From NCBI GenBank assembly GCA_030295235.1, contig AP026128.1:372001-436000 (forward strand): a stretch of 64,000 nt of DNA. Reading direction: 5' to 3'. A program made the translations under genes and the position numbers. The notes under the pieces are model-generated. The model worked only from the letters and a program-made list of their open reading frames with translations, was not told the origin of the DNA and did no database searches. This DNA comes from Fistulifera solaris. Lineage: Eukaryota. Shown in pieces: positions 4,431-12,518 of this stretch (positions are counted from its first letter, which is position 1; the number at the start of each line of letters is the position of its first letter).

Positions 4431-7329
4431 TTACGGATTTTGATTTCTTTGAATTAGTGGTACCCCCTGTGCCACTCGGGGTGGCCCTCGCACGGTGCTA
4501 CTCTCCGGAGAAGTTGGAACAGGAGCCATATCGGTAGTGCTAGTGCTAACTGGAACAGTGGGAGAAGACGGCCCCGAGAGCGTGGAAAGTGGCACCGCAA
4601 TCGGCGACGGCATGGTCACGCCGGTTCGCTTGCCGCTAATGGGACCTAAAACAGGTGGACTGACAGGCGAACTGACAGGAGTCGGTACTGATATAGGTGC
4701 CGGTGCAGGTGAGCCCGAGGGAGTCTGTCAAGAGTAATTGATTAGTCGAAGATGAGGCTGATTTAAACACGAACAACTGACAACACTCACAACTTCCGTC
4801 GATCGATCATAATCAATGCATTGCGCTTTGCTGGCACTGCCCGCTGAAGCAGCAATAAACTGGCAAGGAAGACCTTCATCTGCAGTTCCAAAATTGTTGG
4901 TTGCGCTCACAGACCCTCCGTCCAAAACGACGACAGTTCCTACCCCTGTAAAATCATTACCCACGAAGTTCGTGCTCGAGACTTCGACGGTACTTCCTTC
5001 CACGGCCAAGATTGCGTATCCAAATCCCTCCTCGCTGTAAGTATTGGCTTCGAACCGAGAATTTTCCACAATGATATCGTTGTAACCCGTTGAGGTCGTG
5101 ACGACTCCGCGCGATTTATCAATGATGGGCAGTCCCTGAGCGTTATTACGGAATGTCGTTTCGACAATACGCACTTGCTGACGAGGCAAAGTAGGGTCGA
5201 TTGCAGGAGTTGGAACCGCGGGGGTAGGCAACGCCGGGGTAGGTAGCGCTGGTGTAGGTAACGCCGGGGTAGGTAGCGCTGGTGTAGGTAACGCCGGGGT
5301 AGGTAGCGCTGGTGTAGGTAACGCCGGGGTCGGTAGCGCTGGAGTAGGCAACGCGGGGGTGGGAAGCGCTGGGGTAGGTAGAGCTGGCGTGGGAAGAGCC
5401 GGGGTTGGTAAAGCTGGCGTGGGAAGCGCTGGGGTTGGAAGCGCTGGAGTTGGTAAAGCCGGGGTAGGTAAAGCTGGCGTGGGCAGCGCTGGGGTCGGAA
5501 GCGCTGGAGTTGGTAATGCAGGAGTCGGAATAGCGACAGGGCTTGCAACGGGCGTCGGTAGTGCAGGGGTTGGTAACGCAGGAGTGGGCACCGGAGCCGC
5601 AGCTGGTACAGGTCCAGCAATAGGTGGAGCAACCGGAGCCACAGGGGCAGCGACACATACATCATCGCATACATTGTTCAAGATACTGTCAAAGCCCACT
5701 GCAGTACAAGAGCAATCGCCGACCATGTCTCCGCAGTCATCGTTGCATCCCTTGACGCGGCAATCCGTAAACGTATCGCAATTGTTTCCGCTGCACACAG
5801 AGGTGACCGTGTACGTGAAATCTCTGCCGGTGCCACAGTATCCTGGGCAAAAATCTCATCCATGAAAACCGCATCCGCATGCTGAAACGAATACGAACAG
5901 CCCGGTGGAGTCACGGAAGGTGGGATGGAATGGTTTTCGTTGACAAAATCATCTTGTAGACCGCGTTTATGTGGCTTCTCGTGAATCTTTTGCTGACGAA
6001 CGGCTTCCATTACCGAGCCCATGCTGTTCATGACTTGCTGAACACTATCTGCCGCTTGCACCTTGCGTACCAGACGAGTAGTAGGGGCAGCTACGGGGCT
6101 AAGAGGCGGCTCTGTTGAGGTAACCGTAGGGTCCCACGAGAGCAACATGGGACCAATGTTGGTGTGATCCTGGTCATTGGGAGGAACAATGATAAAGTGA
6201 GATTCACTAAATGAGAAAACATGTAACGTTCGAACAGAAGATTAAACCTCAAACTTACCTCAAAGATGCAATCCTGGAACGTAATGTCACCCGAGTTATC
6301 GAGAACGGCTCCCGCTTGTTGGGCCATGGCAAAGGTAAATCCTTGAAACCGAGCATTGGTCGCCGGCTGCTGATACAAACTAAACGCCGAAATCACTTGC
6401 GTTTCACCACCCCTGAGCACACAGTTGTTGCTGATATCTCCGTTCGCACCACAGATATAATGCGTGTTGGTGCGTGCCGTCAGGGGCGCCATACCGCCCA
6501 CCAACGACGTACTTCCCGCAATGTTGGTGAGAGTTCCAATGTTGTAGACGCGGTTGCTGCAGAGTGAATACGTTGTGACGACGGCCGGATTGGCATTCAC
6601 GACATCTTGCAACAAAAGCGTGGTGTCGCTATAGCAATTCGGAACATCAATCGAGGGAGCTACTACCGTCGGTACCGCAACAGGCGTTGTAATGGGAGTG
6701 GAAGGCACCATCACGGGCGTGGGCACCGATACGGGGCTCGCGAGAGGAGTCGGCAATGCCACTGGTACAGTCACAGGGGCCATCACTGGAGCAGGGACAG
6801 GGACCGTCACGGGAGCCGGAACCGGAGCCACAACAGGCACGGGCGCTGCAGGAGCCGGTCCATCACACAAAACCTCGCAAGCCTCATCGAGTGCGGTGTC
6901 AAAATCTATGATTTCCAAGGGAGGACATTCCAGTAACGCGGATGTACATCCACTCACACCACATAGAATCACCGAACTACAAACGGCTTTAGGATCGGTA
7001 TACGCTATGTCACATTGAGTTTCAATTCGCAGCGTGAAATCGCGACCCGTTCCGCAGCGATCCGGACAAATGAACTGATCGATCGGATTCGTGGATGTGG
7101 GAGTATGATTCAATTCATCGTAATCGCATTCGCTAGGAACAATAAAAGGAGGCAACGTATGCCCTAATCGACGAGCCTTGTACGAAGCGGTCATCGTTTC
7201 TTTGAACTCCTCAAAAGCGTTCAGGCGATTGTTCTCTCCCTTGCTGTATTCGGAAAAGGATTGCGTAAATTGTGCCGCATCTGCCGCCGCCCCTAGCCAA
7301 AGGCTCAAGTATGCGGCCTTCATCTTCAT
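4431..7329 (-). CDS. Large secreted Pro/Thr-rich protein with two Cys-rich modules, PTPAL repeats and a beta-helix-like domain
   Basis: Signal peptide MKMKAAYLSLWLGAAADA. Introns at ~6258-6170 and ~4790-4726 and a frameshift in the A-run at ~5850 join the ORF pieces. Repeated C-P-x-x-C-G-T-G-R-D-F-T module; ends in a Pro/Ser/Thr-rich tail. Confidence 0.8.
5199..5590 (-). repeat. Coding 15-bp tandem repeat encoding (PTPAL)n, about 20 consecutive units
   Basis: Visible in the translation of ORF 4728-5798. Third codon positions vary, with near-perfect 30-bp dimer units at ~5238-5330. Confidence 0.97.
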
Positions 7330-8156
7330 GGCTGTTTGCTTTGCTGGGTAAACGAAGAAGAGAGCACCCGACAAAACGGTTCGTGTCTAATAATGCCTTC
7401 TCGATTGTGCTTGGATCTGGAGGCGCGAGACGAAGGACCACGCAACACGCAACACTCCGTTCGATGGAGGACGTAAGTCTAGAATAAGTGCACCCAAGCT
7501 GTTTCTTGCCTAGATACACTAATAATTAAGCGCTCGGAGGTTCACTTCAGTACTATACTCGGCTTTGCCCCGTTAGATAAGCGACTTTCAACGGAAAACA
7601 ATCGGGACAAAAATACGCCAAATTTTCATTCCGCTTTCGATTTGATACGAGAGAAAGAATTCCCGCCTTTCTATTATCAATCCAAGAAAGTACTTCCAGA
7701 AAGTCTGTCAAGACAAACTATACTATCAAGTGTACTGAGACTAGTTAAGTATTTTCTCGACTTAGAGCTAACGGAAAGGCCTGGCGCACCCTCCTTGACC
7801 GTTTCCATTATTCAAACTTTCACGAACAAAAATGACCCTCCCTCCGATAATTTCGGGCTTCCGCCGAAAAGCCCTCGGATCCATCGGTGATGTGAATGGT
7901 GATGTATCTTGATACGAATAAATACTTTTGTTTAAAATATTAGTCTCCGATAATATCGGTGATGTTTCGGAGGAACGCGATAATGATTGCTACACGATCG
8001 GATGACACTGCCAACATCACGGAACATAAATAATAACAAAATGGCAACGAAAGGGGTTCCCGTTCCCGATCAGGATTCTCGAGGCTTTCAAAGTGCTTTT
8101 ATAGTAATTGGCTATCCTTCCAGCATAATTCTGCTACCTGATTATTTTAACTGTAC

Positions 8157-11039
8157 CTATACAGTCGACGACGACAGTTTCGGACGCGTGACCCACTGCG
8201 CCAACTGTTCGTAGGCCATCAAGGAGATGCCAAATTGCGGAGCGAGACGAAGAACACGCGCCGTGCCTCCTCGAAAGAACGATCGCCACCCCTCTTGCTG
8301 ATACATTTTTGTGACGCAGTCTCGTACGCCGCTGTAATAATAGAGCACTTCACCGTCCGGACGAGTGGATTGCAATCGGGTTTTAACGACATCGGCGGGA
8401 ATCGTGAGCGCGGCGGCCGGGATTCCGGCGACAGTCCCAGCCAACCAAATGTTGGCATTGGTTGGTTGATCGATTTCGGCATCTAGCAAGTGACGGAGTG
8501 CGGAATACGTGGGAAAATAAATGGCACTGAACGGTACATCGCGCAATAAGCATGCGGTAGCACCGCGATAGACTCCAGGTAGACCCATTTGCCGAACGAT
8601 CGATCGGAGAGAAGCTGGTTCGATTGACGGAATGCCCCGTTTCTCCAAGAAGCGATTCGTTTCCCCTTCTAATTGCATATGGATTTTCGTTACTTCCATT
8701 GGATTGGTCACCAGCAACTGGCAGGCGCCCGCGCATGCACCCGCTATCACTTCGACCCACAAACTAGGTTTTGTGGAGACGCCATTCGCTTCATGACTTT
8801 CCCTGTGCGGATCCAGAACTTGCTTGATCAAATCGTTCACCTGAATTTTTATCAATTTTTCAGGACCTATTCCGATGAGCTGAGGAGTGAGTCCACGGTA
8901 GAGGCCGAGGGCAGATTCATGCTGCACGACACTGCGTAAGCAGTGCATCCAGCTTCGATACGATGCTTGTCCTCTTTTAGGCACTGCTTCATTCATCATT
9001 CGCGTCTTGGCGAGATCCAGTGGATAGAGAAACAGGGCCCCCATGGAGCTTGCTACTGCTGTCAGCCAAAAATGCTGTACAAAGCCTTCCATCTTTGCCC
9101 GGAAGCCCTCTTCCGTTTCGTTCTCAAGACTGACTCGATCATCCAGATGAGCCGCAGACGAGGCGAAGGTGAGCTTTCCGTCTCGACCAGGTAACGCTTC
9201 TAAGCGTCGCACAAAATCCATTCCACAAACTTCAATGGCATCGTGCGAAGAGATGTAACCATCATGATTACGATCAAAGAGCGCAAATATAATTTCGACC
9301 TGCCTTCGACTGAGCCGTCCACCCATTCCTAATGCCCGATTCGCTACTTTGAAATCATCCGGAGATATGGCGCCTTTCTTGATTTGTTCCGCTTGGTCGA
9401 TTAAATTGCAAATACCCGATAGATTACCCAGTATTTCTTGAAATGCGAGAAAGTCGCCATATGCAAAGTAGCGCACGCCTGTAATCGTACCAGCATCGAC
9501 AGACAGCTCAGAACTACTAACATTCGTTGGAGGTTCGGCGGCACTTTCGGAATCAATGTTTTTCTCCACTTTTCTATAAATTTCATCCAAGCGGTCTGCG
9601 ACGCCTTGGGGTAATCGCCATCCACAAGCAGTCGTTAACACCTTGATGAACTCGTCTGGATCCAAATGATCTTCCACAGAACCTCGCTTCTTCGTATCGA
9701 CAGCGCGAAGAAACGCTTGCTTTCCAATTTCTCGCTGAAGATCGACTAAAAACTGAGAAAAGTGAACCTGACGGATGGATTGCTTCCCGTCTTTACCGAA
9801 ATATCGTTGAAAGAACTGCGAACTAAGGTCCAGGTCAGGGAAAAGAGGCTTAACGAACGAAACAAGATCAGCAAGCATAATCTGACCCTTCTGTCGTTGA
9901 TCCATCAACAGAAAGGCTATATCTACTTCCGGGTCGGGTCGATCCATGAGCATGTGGTAGAAGCAAAAATCCTCCAAGTAGACGCGCGGTAGTTCATCGT
10001 AATCTTTCTTTTGCCTTCTCCGTAAAAGATGGTGCAATGTGTTTACAGTCCTTAGACTGGACATAGGATCCTCGTTCAAAGTACTGGTCGAGTTCCATTT
10101 GCGTCGAGATTCCACGAACTCTTCCATGGTCATATAGAGAACACCATGCTCGTCCGACTTCGTAGCGCATTCCTCGAACCGGCGACTCATCACTTCACTT
10201 GGGAGAACATATTCCCAAAAGGCTGTGAAATCGACCACCCAACACTGCAAATTCGATCCAGTCTCTGCTTGCGTGGATGCTACGACCGAGGCCGAGTGCT
10301 GCCGTCCGAACAAGAAACCCCCTTCACCAAACAGAGTGCCCGGACCCAGCGATGCTGGACGAAAATTCTGTGGCTGATACCAAACATCGGCTTTACCGTC
10401 GCGAACGACGTACAAAGAGCGTTTGATTCCACTTCGCGGAGACGCAGGAGGATCTTCTAAAAAATCCGCCGATAGAAACGTTGTCGCAGCCTCCCGCGCG
10501 CGAAGGAAAGGATTCTTCCACGAACTATCCATGCCACCAAATACATTCGACAACGAATCATCAAATGACCTCCTTTCATTCACATTGGGAGACTCGGACT
10601 CGTCATTGTTCGCTATCCGATTTCCGGTAACATCTTCCGTTCTGCTCTCCTCCACTGGGGCATTATTTCGTTCAAACGACTTGGCATATATTTCTTCCTC
10701 TTCCACATCCGCAGGATCTATTTCAGAGAAAATTTTGGTGGAAGTCCGTTGCGGTTTTCGAATCCGGCTGTCAGCACGATCTTGTAGGTCGTCGTCATCC
10801 ACACAACCTTCTAGAATGACAATATCTCCCGGATGAAATTCTTTCAACTCGGCGACCGAGATGAAACGCTCTATTTGACTTTCATCTAAGCAAGCGAAGA
10901 AAGGAGATTTTTGAATAGCGAGGCGAATTAGCTCTCGATCTTGTTGATTTTTGAAATGAGAAGGAAAGTAACGTGTTCGCTTGCGCGTCTTGGGCTTTAA
11001 TTGCACTCCTTTTCGGTGACTGTTGTCCGCGTCCGTCAT
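8157..11039 (-). CDS. Ca2+-binding mitochondrial carrier (aralar/citrin-like aspartate-glutamate carrier) with N-terminal cNMP-binding domain
   Basis: Three carrier motifs: PLDLAKTRMM, PMEVTKIHMQ, PADVVKTRLQ. Also LLRDVPFSAIYF and ARVLRLAPQFG. EF-hand-like DQRQKGQI and DRNHDGYISSHD. cNMP-fold elements SPFFACLD...EFHPGDIVILEG and LYVVRDGKADV...LGPGTLFGE...SASVVA. Confidence 0.9.
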   Translation of the reverse strand: MTDADNSHRKGVQLKPKTRKRTRYFPSHFKNQQDRELIRLAIQKSPFFACLDESQIERFISVAELKEFHPGDIVILEGCVDDDDLQDRADSRIRKPQRTSTKIFSEIDPADVEEEEIYAKSFERNNAPVEESRTEDVTGNRIANNDESESPNVNERRSFDDSLSNVFGGMDSSWKNPFLRAREAATTFLSADFLEDPPASPRSGIKRSLYVVRDGKADVWYQPQNFRPASLGPGTLFGEGGFLFGRQHSASVVASTQAETGSNLQCWVVDFTAFWEYVLPSEVMSRRFEECATKSDEHGVLYMTMEEFVESRRKWNSTSTLNEDPMSSLRTVNTLHHLLRRRQKKDYDELPRVYLEDFCFYHMLMDRPDPEVDIAFLLMDQRQKGQIMLADLVSFVKPLFPDLDLSSQFFQRYFGKDGKQSIRQVHFSQFLVDLQREIGKQAFLRAVDTKKRGSVEDHLDPDEFIKVLTTACGWRLPQGVADRLDEIYRKVEKNIDSESAAEPPTNVSSSELSVDAGTITGVRYFAYGDFLAFQEILGNLSGICNLIDQAEQIKKGAISPDDFKVANRALGMGGRLSRRQVEIIFALFDRNHDGYISSHDAIEVCGMDFVRRLEALPGRDGKLTFASSAAHLDDRVSLENETEEGFRAKMEGFVQHFWLTAVASSMGALFLYPLDLAKTRMMNEAVPKRGQASYRSWMHCLRSVVQHESALGLYRGLTPQLIGIGPEKLIKIQVNDLIKQVLDPHRESHEANGVSTKPSLWVEVIAGACAGACQLLVTNPMEVTKIHMQLEGETNRFLEKRGIPSIEPASLRSIVRQMGLPGVYRGATACLLRDVPFSAIYFPTYSALRHLLDAEIDQPTNANIWLAGTVAGIPAAALTIPADVVKTRLQSTRPDGEVLYYYSGVRDCVTKMYQQEGWRSFFRGGTARVLRLAPQFGISLMAYEQLAQWVTRPKLSSSTV

Positions 11040-11526
11040 GGTGTGCTTTATGTTAGTCAGGATGGTTAAAGAAGCGCTATGATTACTGTTTGACTGGAAT
11101 AATATATACAACACTCTGACTGACTTATTTGCTCAACGCAAAACAAACTTCGTTTTGTTCATTGCTCATTGCGTTTTGTGTTTGACTTCGACTTCGTCTT
11201 GCACCTTCGCGCGTTTTATCGGAGGGAAAGACATCATTACCGGTATGACCGGATCATGTTTGAGAGACTGGAGCAAGGAGTGGTGTTGCAGAAAGATCCT
11301 GAGTACAATATAGAGTATACAATCGTAACATTTATTGGCACTGGCGAAATGAAACGGTTCTAAATAAATAGCACAATAACAGTCTCGCGCCTATCGCGCC
11401 ATCGCATGTCGCATGCGATGAGGACAACGACGAGGACGAGTTTTTATTTATTGCGCATCATTGCACGGCTTGAGCTTGCCTTGTCTAGCGCACAAGTCTT
11501 TTAACCTGCATAGAAAGCTCTTTCAG

Positions 11527-12518
11527 ATGAATCTGAACACATTGAAACTCCTCCTCGTCGCGGCGATCGCCGTCAACGCTTCTCTTGTCGACGTTGTTGA
11601 CTTTGAAAGCATCAACAGTCAGCTTCAGGAGGAACCGAGAGACTTGCAAGGTATTTGCGCCGCCATTCTTCGAAATGTCCCCATTTTTAATGGATGCACC
11701 TGTGAACTGCAGTTCATACAAAACACTGCTACAATCAGTTGTGATGATAGGTGCCAGGGCTGCTCACAAACCGAAGACGTCTGTGTTGTGGGCTCGTTTG
11801 ACGCGACGATTGCGGTGGCTACTCTTGAAGTGCAAAAGTTATCTTCCGGGTTGAACACAGCGGCGATGACAGCAGTAAGCGCACGTTGCGACTTGAAATA
11901 GTTGAAGGATCAAACCCTAGTTGCAGCACATTCATCAACAATGTGAAATGCTCGTCCTGTACCTTGAGCACCTCCAACATTGATCTCAGCGCGAACTGCA
12001 TTGACGCCGTCCATGATTGCCGCAACATTGGTTTTGGCCGCGTGGATGGATGCGACTTGACTGCTCTACGAGCTCTTCCGTCCGAGAATCCGTTCAGTGT
12101 TTTGAGGAGTGACATCCTATTCCCTCTCGAGACTTGTCTCGCTCAGGATGGCGCACCAGCTCCAGTTCGAGCGCCAGTACCCGTGCCTGTACCAGTTCGA
12201 GCACCCGTTCCAGCTCCTGTTCGAGCCCCAGTGCCGGTTCCTGTTCGAGCACCAGTTCCAGCTCCTGTTCGAGCACCAGTTCCAGCTCCTGTTCGAGCAC
12301 CTGTTCCAGCTCCTGTTCGGGCACCTGTTCCAGCTCCTGTTCGGGCACCCGTTCCGGTTCGACCACCCGTGCCAGCACCGGTTCGCGTTCCAACATTGCC
12401 GGGCATTCCGCCCAAAAAGACTCCGCCAGATAACAAGGACAAAGATCAATTGAAACTTTCTCAATTTGATGCCGATAGAGGTGGCCTCAAGCGCAAGCTC
12501 AAGAGCGCCCGTGGCTAA
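11527..12518 (+). CDS. Secreted Cys-rich protein with PVRAPVPA repeats (paralog 1 of 3)
   Basis: Signal peptide [22 protein letters not shown] motif, Cys-rich domain. A 1-nt frameshift at ~11848 joins ORFs 11461-11901 and 11886-12518, and the joined protein aligns to paralog 2 (GDDSSKRTL vs GQDSSKSTL). Confidence 0.85.
12153..12390 (+). repeat. Coding 24-bp tandem repeat encoding PVRAPVP(A/V)
   Basis: About 9 units similar to CCTGTTCGAGCACCAGTTCCAGCT. Confidence 0.95.

Follow-up and report, generated by a model that had tools for sequence, protein, structure and literature searches.

Whether a mitochondrial solute carrier can come under the control of a cyclic-nucleotide-binding (CNB) domain is the question raised by a gene of the diatom Fistulifera solaris. 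The gene lies on the minus strand of a 64,000-nucleotide stretch of contig AP026128.1 (positions 372,001 to 436,000; the whole stretch is called the window here, and positions are counted from its first letter), where 8157-11039 hold one uninterrupted open reading frame (ORF) of 960 codons plus a stop codon (8157-8159), with no intron needed. An earlier note on this DNA had seen in that single ORF an aralar/citrin-type mitochondrial carrier fused to a split CNB domain. We recovered the frame as described, and both CNB peptides quoted in the note are present in the 960-residue product, P0001. At the base composition of the window (47.6% G+C), a stop-free run of 960 codons has a chance of ~2e-22. 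P0001 is collinear with P0002 over 100% of its length at 90% identity, and among the matches listed many diatom homologues are collinear with it over 96–99% of its length.

Modules of the carrier protein

An AlphaFold2 model of whole P0001, built on 66 aligned sequences, had a mean predicted local distance difference test (pLDDT) value of 78.7 and a predicted template-modelling (TM) score (pTM) of 0.57. Residues ~30–90 and 200–290 were modelled at pLDDT 90–97 and residues 92–190 at 31–48, and a model of residues 25–300 alone (80 sequences) gave a matching picture. In a Foldseek comparison with the PDB, the listed top matches were CNB domains of PKG, PKA and HCN (best 4z07_C, E 3.3e-9), with a root-mean-square deviation (rmsd) of 1.3–1.7 Å and TM scores by target length of 0.84–0.89 against single PKG CNB-A domains. 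Superposed with VIA-align on PKG I CNB-A (3ocp_A), model residues 21–281 covered 127 of 127 residues at Z 19.9 and rmsd 1.3 Å, with 28% identity. Because models and structure matches agree, both sequence halves are predicted to form one CNB β-roll, from which the insert departs as a disordered β2–β3 excursion. Judged by these models, the split N-terminal region of P0001 is a real CNB fold, with an eight-stranded β-roll, N-terminal helix, cassette helix and B/C helices, in agreement with the split fold for which the earlier note had asked a structure prediction. The insert is acidic, as had been noted (27 D+E against 15 K+R), and 117 residues long instead of the ~125 first estimated.

In sequence comparisons, Pfam cNMP_binding (PF00027) matched P0001 with 27.5 bits, exactly its gathering score, aligning residues 207–259 with profile positions 18–73 of 89. 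A phmmer search of PDB sequences with residues 30–300 returned Plasmodium PKG as the best match (E 6.6e-14), followed by CNB domains of PKA RI and PKG I. The specificity of the region was examined by scoring residues 25–300 against 1.84 billion cluster representatives, which yielded 130 proteins at E ≤ 0.001, 61 at E ≤ 1e-10 and 32 at E ≤ 1e-30. Thirty hand-picked matches were then scanned with Pfam. Within this set, all six long matches at E ≤ 1e-20 combined cNMP_binding with Mito_carr, five of them also with EF-hand families, and between E 2e-12 and 1e-4 the three-way combination of cNMP, EF-hand and Mito_carr occurred in 2 of 24. The other 22 were proteins with tandem CNB domains (14 with CNB alone, 3 with a kinase, 2 with TPR, and 1 each with patatin, RhoGEF and WW). 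The closest solved folds are the CNB domains of PKG and PKA, in which B/C helices follow the β-roll as in P0001. P0001 differs from them in a His for the cassette Arg, in a Gly-Gly within the cassette helix, in the insert between β2 and β3, and in that its domain is joined to a transporter and not to a kinase.

Behind the CNB region, Pfam placed several EF-hand families around residues 554–603. HMMER matched the regulatory domain of P0001 to 4p5w (E 3.9e-9) and 4p5x (E 1.6e-6), and VIA-align superposed model residues 285–608 on apo aralar (4p60_B) at Z 16.5 and rmsd 3.4 Å over 260 of 284 residues, with similar Z for citrin (4p5w_B, 16.4) and Ca2+-bound aralar (4p5x, 16.1). By whole-domain superposition of the model, an aralar-type domain of eight EF-hand folds is present. 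In human aralar and citrin, Ca2+ is bound by EF-hand 2 only (PMC4250520). The human EF-hand 2 loop DQTKDGLISYQE (aralar) aligns with RRRQKKDYDELPRVYLED in P0001, which lacks the D-x-D-x-D-G pattern; the model has a 14-residue loop there (341–354), and the EF-hand 2 loops of other diatom homologues are likewise non-canonical. A canonical loop, DRNHDGYISSHD, occurs in the last EF-hand and is strongly conserved in 66 aligned sequences (position 1 D in 66, position 3 D/N in 64, position 5 D in 64, position 6 G in 65 and position 12 D in 64). The EF-hand 2 Ca2+ loop of P0001 is, by this alignment, degenerate, and the last EF-hand holds its single canonical loop. The EF-hand input of aralar/citrin type proposed earlier therefore stands as regards the domain fold and fails as regards the layout of the Ca2+ sites.

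The human mechanism involves two further elements: EF-hands 1–2 (1–3 in the abstract) are described as a mobile unit and EF-hands 4–8 as a static dimer interface, and an amphipathic helix at the C-terminus attaches to the N-terminal domain in the Ca2+-bound state (PMC4250520). A two-copy complex prediction of residues 296–640, in which the alignment was not used, scored 0.00 and gave no verdict. Most homologues have a conserved tail of 40–80 residues after the carrier ('PPTNAP.DP.DYR.AFP...K..DID.L..N.G'), which we infer, by position only, to be the equivalent of the human C-terminal helix; P0001 and P0002 end 7 residues after the carrier. The tail helix being absent from P0001, the human helix-in-groove gating step cannot apply unchanged. 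As for a tail encoded on a downstream exon, the three minus-strand frames of 7400–8200, which were the extent of the search, hold no 'PPTNAP..DYR' peptide.

The C-terminal third contains three Pfam Mito_carr repeats (PF00153, E 3.4e-61). Residues 650–953 superposed with VIA-align on UCP1 (8hbv_A) at Z 28.0 with 281 residues aligned, and on ADP/ATP carriers at Z ~22. The carrier shares the blocks PEK..K..VND, LLRD.PFSAIYFP and R..R..PQFG with fungal and animal proteins named AGC1/Aralar; these blocks presumably hold the proposed substrate contact points. The first matches beyond the family of P0001 were ordinary named AGC1/Aralar proteins, 31–34% identical to it over 61–71% of the query (EF-hand domain and carrier), and with the unsplit relative P0094 as query, AGC1s of fungi, amoebozoa and animals appeared at 38–41% identity. 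By homology, the mitochondrial aspartate/glutamate carrier (AGC; SLC25A12/13/Agc1 group) has its diatom orthologue in P0001.

The combination of CNB, EF-hand and carrier modules first noticed by eye is thus borne out by Pfam, PDB matches and models alike. Like human aralar (AGC1, SLC25A12) and citrin (AGC2, SLC25A13), P0001 has a multi-EF-hand domain followed by a three-repeat carrier. It differs from them in an extra N-terminal CNB domain, in a canonical loop in the last EF-hand in place of EF-hand 2, and in the absence of the C-terminal amphipathic-helix region. Another class of SLC25 carrier with an N-terminal ligand-sensing domain is formed by the ATP-Mg/Pi carriers (APC/SCaMC, SLC25A23-25), as described in PMC7611774; unlike P0001, these have a four-EF-hand calmodulin-like domain, an ADP/ATP-carrier-like transport domain and no CNB, and they were not its nearest relatives in our searches.

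As a separate observation, the second carrier signature of P0001 (~8650–8700, minus strand; residues 780–790) reads P-M-E-V-T-K-I-H-M-Q, with K-I-R-[LM]-Q in named AGC1s and other diatoms, and so has His where Arg or Lys is normal.

Distribution of the fusion and history of the insert

A search of 5.8 billion proteins with whole P0001 gave 299 matches at E ≤ 0.001 among 8000 scored candidates. Among the best 120 of these 299, the first 90-odd share the build of P0001. Named sources of the family are Seminavis robusta, Mayamaea pseudoterrestris, Cylindrotheca closterium, Amphora coffeaeformis, Attheya septentrionalis, Corethron hystrix and Pseudo-nitzschia australis, and the P0094 search added further CNB-bearing members, one of them from Tribonema minus. 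The homologues carry database labels such as 'AGC1', 'Calmodulin' and 'solute carrier family 25 aspartate/glutamate transporter 12/13'; one JGI name is 'Mitochondrial carrier protein/Cyclic nucleotide-binding domain/EF-hand domain pair'. In total, CNB, EF-hand and carrier modules occur together in at least 78 homologues. The co-occurrence across stramenopiles that the earlier note had wished to see examined is therefore that of a family, and the idea of a fusion peculiar to this one gene does not hold, since the family is conserved and its deeper members are unsplit with the canonical Arg. Three MMETSP transcriptome proteins, from Attheya (P0040), Corethron (P0137) and Pseudo-nitzschia australis (P0143), have cNMP, EF-hand and Mito_carr matches in one frame.

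To follow the insert and the cassette residue we used an alignment of 66 sequences, composed of P0001–P0066 without the short P0047, P0051, P0056 and P0064, plus P0073, P0091, P0093 and P0094; the fragments among P0067–P0092 were otherwise excluded. The position of the cassette Arg is His in 61 of the 66 and Arg in 5 (P0057, P0073, P0091, P0093 and P0094). Twelve further CNB-bearing sequences from the P0094 search all have Arg (7 assigned by pattern match, 5 by eye), so that the residue is kept in 17 of 17 CNB-AGC relatives outside the His clade. The insert is absent from all 17 of these Arg-type relatives (Corethron, Tribonema and protists) and measures 55–225 residues in the His-type clade. 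The distance from the N-helix marker to the cassette was 73–88 residues in the 7 Arg-type sequences in which the marker was found, and 134–303 residues in 51 of 61 His-type sequences, the marker pattern being unmatched in the other 10. Unsplit members (Corethron hystrix P0057/P0137, Tribonema minus P0156, EukProt P0093/P0094) have the module order of P0001 and fall in the same clade. They are its opposite in having a continuous CNB domain (59–71 Pfam bits over the whole profile in P0091, P0093 and P0094), the canonical Arg and no insert.

The tree was inferred by an IQ-TREE quick search (LG+G4, 860 columns, with the cassette included and the insert filtered out) from 90 rows, namely the 66, the 12 further sequences and 12 CNB-less AGC1s as outgroup, with branch support from the SH-like approximate likelihood ratio test (SH-aLRT). 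The 78 CNB-bearing rows all group in a single clade (SH-aLRT 99) beside the ordinary AGC1s, which indicates that the CNB fusion arose once. Within it, the 61 rows with His and insert form one clade (98), nested among the 17 Arg-type rows without insert, and Corethron P0057 and P0073 branch next to it. The Arg-to-His change and the insert appeared together, once, in crown diatoms, as one event or a tightly linked pair.

These comparisons also bear on the possibility that the architecture is an artefact of the gene model, in which the insert would be an in-frame intron left unspliced, or the CNB part would belong to another gene upstream or to an untranslated leader, and the true protein would be an ordinary AGC. 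The insert does have a lower G+C content (0.43–0.46) than the remainder of the ORF (~0.50). Against such an artefact stand the single 960-codon frame, the need of both CNB halves for one β-roll, a frame that stays open across inserts of widely varying length in 61 homologues, the transcript-derived Attheya P0040 with its insert in frame, and the differences between the inserts of P0001 and P0002, which are substitutions and frame-keeping gaps only. On the open frames, the in-frame insert of P0040 and the single β-roll we reject the insert as an intron, and we regard an artefact of any of these kinds as very improbable.

Conservation is unevenly spread along the protein. Within the 61-sequence clade, mean identity to P0001 is 59% in the N-terminal and 58% in the C-terminal part of the CNB domain, rising to 83% in the cassette ±5 residues, and is 49% in the EF-hand domain, 47% in the carrier and 16% in the insert. 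Between P0001 and P0002, identical positions number 52/53 and 90/93 in the two CNB parts, 320/347 in the EF-hand domain and 299/320 in the carrier; in the insert they number 92/117, with 7 gap positions and the frame kept. Motifs recur in the insert near its ends only ('AD.D' early, and 'P.S', with the consensus 'PPP.SG', just before β3). The insert is, as these alignments indicate, kept as a feature and not as a sequence. Purifying selection is, to judge from the same identities, stronger on the CNB core than on the carrier; a CNB pocket constrained more than the transporter argues for a working site.

Several observations on the wider family stand apart from this. The Tribonema protein P0156 (1136 residues) also has the short-chain dehydrogenase families PF13561 and PF00106 in a precomputed Pfam list; since the near-identical P0152 has 862 residues, the additional residues may come from the merging of gene models. 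In a protein atlas the family has a cluster of its own (59 members, Bacillariophyta). As leads, two further atlas clusters (scores 0.80–0.81) combine cNMP_binding and Mito_carr, one commonest in Oomycota (66 members, 56% of them also with Peptidase_C92) and one commonest in Chlorophyta (123 members, ~620 residues). These oomycete and green-algal clusters may be independent CNB-carrier fusions.

Predicted regulation and its alternatives

We take the anatomy, the distribution and the selection pattern of P0001 as established, and its function as predicted. The cassette keeps F-G-E, E239 (the ribose 2'-OH contact) and S249-A250-S251 as its [ST]-A-[ST] end. The ribose-binding Glu is present in 57 of 61 clade members (S, T or D in the remainder), and the 15-residue cassette FGEGGFLFGRQHSAS is identical in 38 of 61. 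His248 stands opposite the cassette Arg of Plasmodium PKG and PKA RI in HMMER alignments ('...qHSASv' against '...qRSATi'), as the earlier note had recognised. That Arg, R209 of PKA RI-alpha, neutralises the cyclic phosphate (PMC10959531). With His at the Arg position, the CNB fold of P0001 is therefore a possible, not a proven, cyclic-nucleotide binder. We speculate that His for Arg should weaken the phosphate contact or make it pH-dependent.

One outcome of this change would be a switched ligand in crown diatoms, that is, a nucleoside, a non-cyclic nucleotide or another metabolite, in parallel with the kinetoplastid PKA regulatory subunits (PKAR), whose cassette Arg is likewise replaced lineage-wide. 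In trypanosomatid PKAR, replacement of Arg by polar residues accompanies nucleoside specificity, and a Glu at the position of PKA A202 binds the ribose hydroxyls and clashes with the phosphate (PMC10959531). Besides this precedent, a single and then frozen Arg-to-His change at the base of a large clade fits such a switch, and trypanosome PKAR structures are among the structural matches of P0001 (Z ~16). The A202 position of P0001, however, is Gly241, which would not bar a cyclic phosphate as the trypanosome Glu does, and His is still able to donate a hydrogen bond or carry a charge. We consider a switched ligand improbable. Since the ribose Glu and the S-A-S end are kept and Gly241 is not a phosphate-excluding Glu, a cyclic nucleotide remains the best guess for the ligand.

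A second alternative does away with the ligand. KCNH channels have CNB-homology domains that are not known to bind nucleotides, and the domain of P0001 could similarly have a structural or autoinhibitory role or serve for protein docking; the acidic insert would then be a platform for interaction or phosphorylation, and any regulation would pass through Ca2+ at the last EF-hand. That all 61 clade members have His for the phosphate-binding Arg would suit such a role, as would a Pfam score just at threshold and the loss of Arg on the same branch as the gain of a 55–225-residue disordered insert, which is expected if the domain changed its job. A pocket without a ligand, on the other hand, would be expected to drift like the insert, whereas the cassette is better conserved than any other stretch of the protein, well above the carrier, and retains its ribose-binding Glu and S-A-[ST] end. 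We hold a ligand-free domain to be unlikely, although a stronger contender than a switched ligand.

Our preferred reading, held with confidence modestly better than even, is that the CNB domain of P0001 senses a ligand and regulates the AGC-type carrier to which it is joined. The fusion of a CNB domain in front of an aralar-type EF-hand regulatory domain would have taken place in a stramenopile ancestor. The N-terminal modules of AGCs lie in the intermembrane space; those of P0001 would do the same and be reachable by small cytosolic molecules, the intermembrane space being confluent with the cytosol (PMC7611774). The CNB pocket would bind a small ligand, most likely cAMP or cGMP with altered affinity, and binding would shift the B/C helices (271–291). 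Because EF-hand 1 starts at about residue 296 without a linker, according to the secondary structure of the model, this movement would pass directly to EF-hands 1–2, which, as in human AGC, would be the mobile unit that opens and closes a vestibule over the carrier. As the EF-hand 2 Ca2+ loop is degenerate, the nucleotide signal would replace the Ca2+ trigger or add to it, and through the last EF-hand, whose canonical loop is conserved, Ca2+ may still have an effect. What would be gated is glutamate/aspartate exchange. The change from Arg to His could have retuned this switch once in crown diatoms, by weakening the binding, by making it depend on pH or by shifting its selectivity to another ligand. 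The complete scheme, a solute carrier set by a second messenger besides or instead of Ca2+, in which an intermembrane-space CNB domain reads cytosolic cAMP or cGMP and drives the mobile EF-hand unit of an AGC, is put forward as a possibility that we ourselves find rather doubtful.

Several points weigh against this regulatory reading. The key phosphate contact, the cassette Arg, is absent from P0001 and from all 61 clade members, and the cassette helix contains two Gly residues. The Pfam cNMP_binding match barely attains its threshold and covers part of the profile only. Mitochondrial localisation and aspartate/glutamate specificity are predicted from homology, and the coupling from CNB through EF-hands 1–2 to the carrier is read from the domain order and from human structures, in a full model with the low pTM quoted above. 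The C-terminal helix used in the human mechanism is missing from P0001, and the first ATG is a putative start.

In PMC7611774 and PMC4250520, the only domains given for characterised AGCs besides the carrier are the EF-hand and the C-terminal one, in line with the earlier statement that SLC25A12/13 are regulated by EF-hands and have no cNMP domain. The former, a review of the SLC25 family, gives regulatory domains for two kinds of carrier, AGC and APC, both with EF-hands and both regulated by Ca2+, and treats the action of such domains on the carrier as an open question (PMC7611774). The earlier note had also allowed that the architecture might already be characterised. We found no description of a CNB-mitochondrial carrier fusion in the literature searched, which did not extend to subscription-only papers and supplements; co-mentions of the two concern separate proteins. 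The fusion sequences are public and auto-annotated in databases, and the architecture is apparently undescribed in the literature searched.

A CNB fold placed on the mobile part of an aralar-type domain would be a natural experiment on how regulatory domains act, with a built-in comparison between the unsplit Arg type (Corethron, Tribonema) and the split His type (crown diatoms). If the predicted regulation is real, a second messenger joins the short list of carrier regulators, and nucleotide signalling is wired into the malate-aspartate shuttle and nitrogen flow. Should the oomycete and green-algal leads hold as well, SLC25 carriers gated by a ligand might form a class that recurs and has been overlooked. 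Diatoms contribute much to primary production, reductant and nitrogen intermediates are exchanged between their mitochondria and plastids, and a link has been drawn between cAMP and the response of diatoms to CO2; a nucleotide-controlled aspartate/glutamate carrier, if confirmed, would link signalling directly to diatom metabolism. The review PMC10096703 mentions cAMP for cyanobacteria only.

Feature coordinates and neighbouring DNA

The features of the gene are collected in Table 1. Contigs built from reads of three runs of one study, whose RNA origin is only presumed, span genic and intergenic bins of 7000–12500 alike, without joints. A pattern scan for promoters and terminators gave counts of 7 and 9, the expectation being 4.9 and 4.6; its consensus patterns are bacterial, and the DNA is eukaryotic.

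Table 1. Position of the carrier gene and its predicted parts in the window, with the basis of each assignment.
Feature	Position	Strand	Basis
Whole coding sequence	8157..11039	(-)	ORF; collinearity with homologues
CNB N-terminal part, residues 30-82: N-terminal helices and strands, ending 'IVILEGC'	10794..10952	(-)	pLDDT 90-97; inside the PKG CNB-A superposition
Disordered acidic insert, β2-β3 loop of the CNB fold, residues 83-199, 117 aa	10443..10793	(-)	pLDDT 31-48
CNB C-terminal part, residues 200-292: β3-β8, cassette helix, B/C helices into EF-hand 1	10164..10442	(-)	Pfam; PDB PKG/PKA RI; pLDDT 91-97
Phosphate-binding cassette FGEGGFLFGRQHSAS, residues 237-251	10287..10331	(-)	Alignment to PKG/PKA cassettes
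His248 codon (Arg in canonical CNB domains)	10296-10298	(-)	Alignment to PKG/PKA cassettes
Aralar/citrin-type EF-hand regulatory domain, residues 293-608	9216..10163	(-)	HMMER; VIA-align
Sole canonical EF-hand loop DRNHDGYISSHD, residues 589-600, last EF-hand	9240..9275	(-)	Pfam EF-hand_1/6/5 at 582-603
Linker from regulatory domain to carrier, residues 609-649	9093..9215	(-)	Low pLDDT at 615-641
Mitochondrial carrier domain, three Mito_carr repeats, six transmembrane helices, residues 650-953	8181..9092	(-)	Pfam; UCP1 match
Seven-residue tail KLSSSTV and stop, family C-terminal extension absent	8157..8180	(-)	Comparison with homologues

Two further ORFs lie near the gene, and a Pfam scan found no family in either. 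The first, at 6091–7329 on the minus strand (412 residues), begins with a hydrophobic, signal-like segment, is rich in Pro/Val/Ala/Thr over a long middle part, and adjoins a 24-bp repeat at 6773–6830; its product looks like a secreted or cell-surface protein. The second, at 11527–11901 on the plus strand (124 residues), is Cys-rich with a signal-like N-terminus and is divergent from the carrier gene across a 487-bp spacer. A 24-bp tandem repeat at 12195–12355 (array ~12162–12370) comprises 6.7 copies with 91% match and keeps several frames open on both strands, giving putative ORFs of 87–101 residues with repeats rich in EQ/EL, GT/GA or QF/LF.

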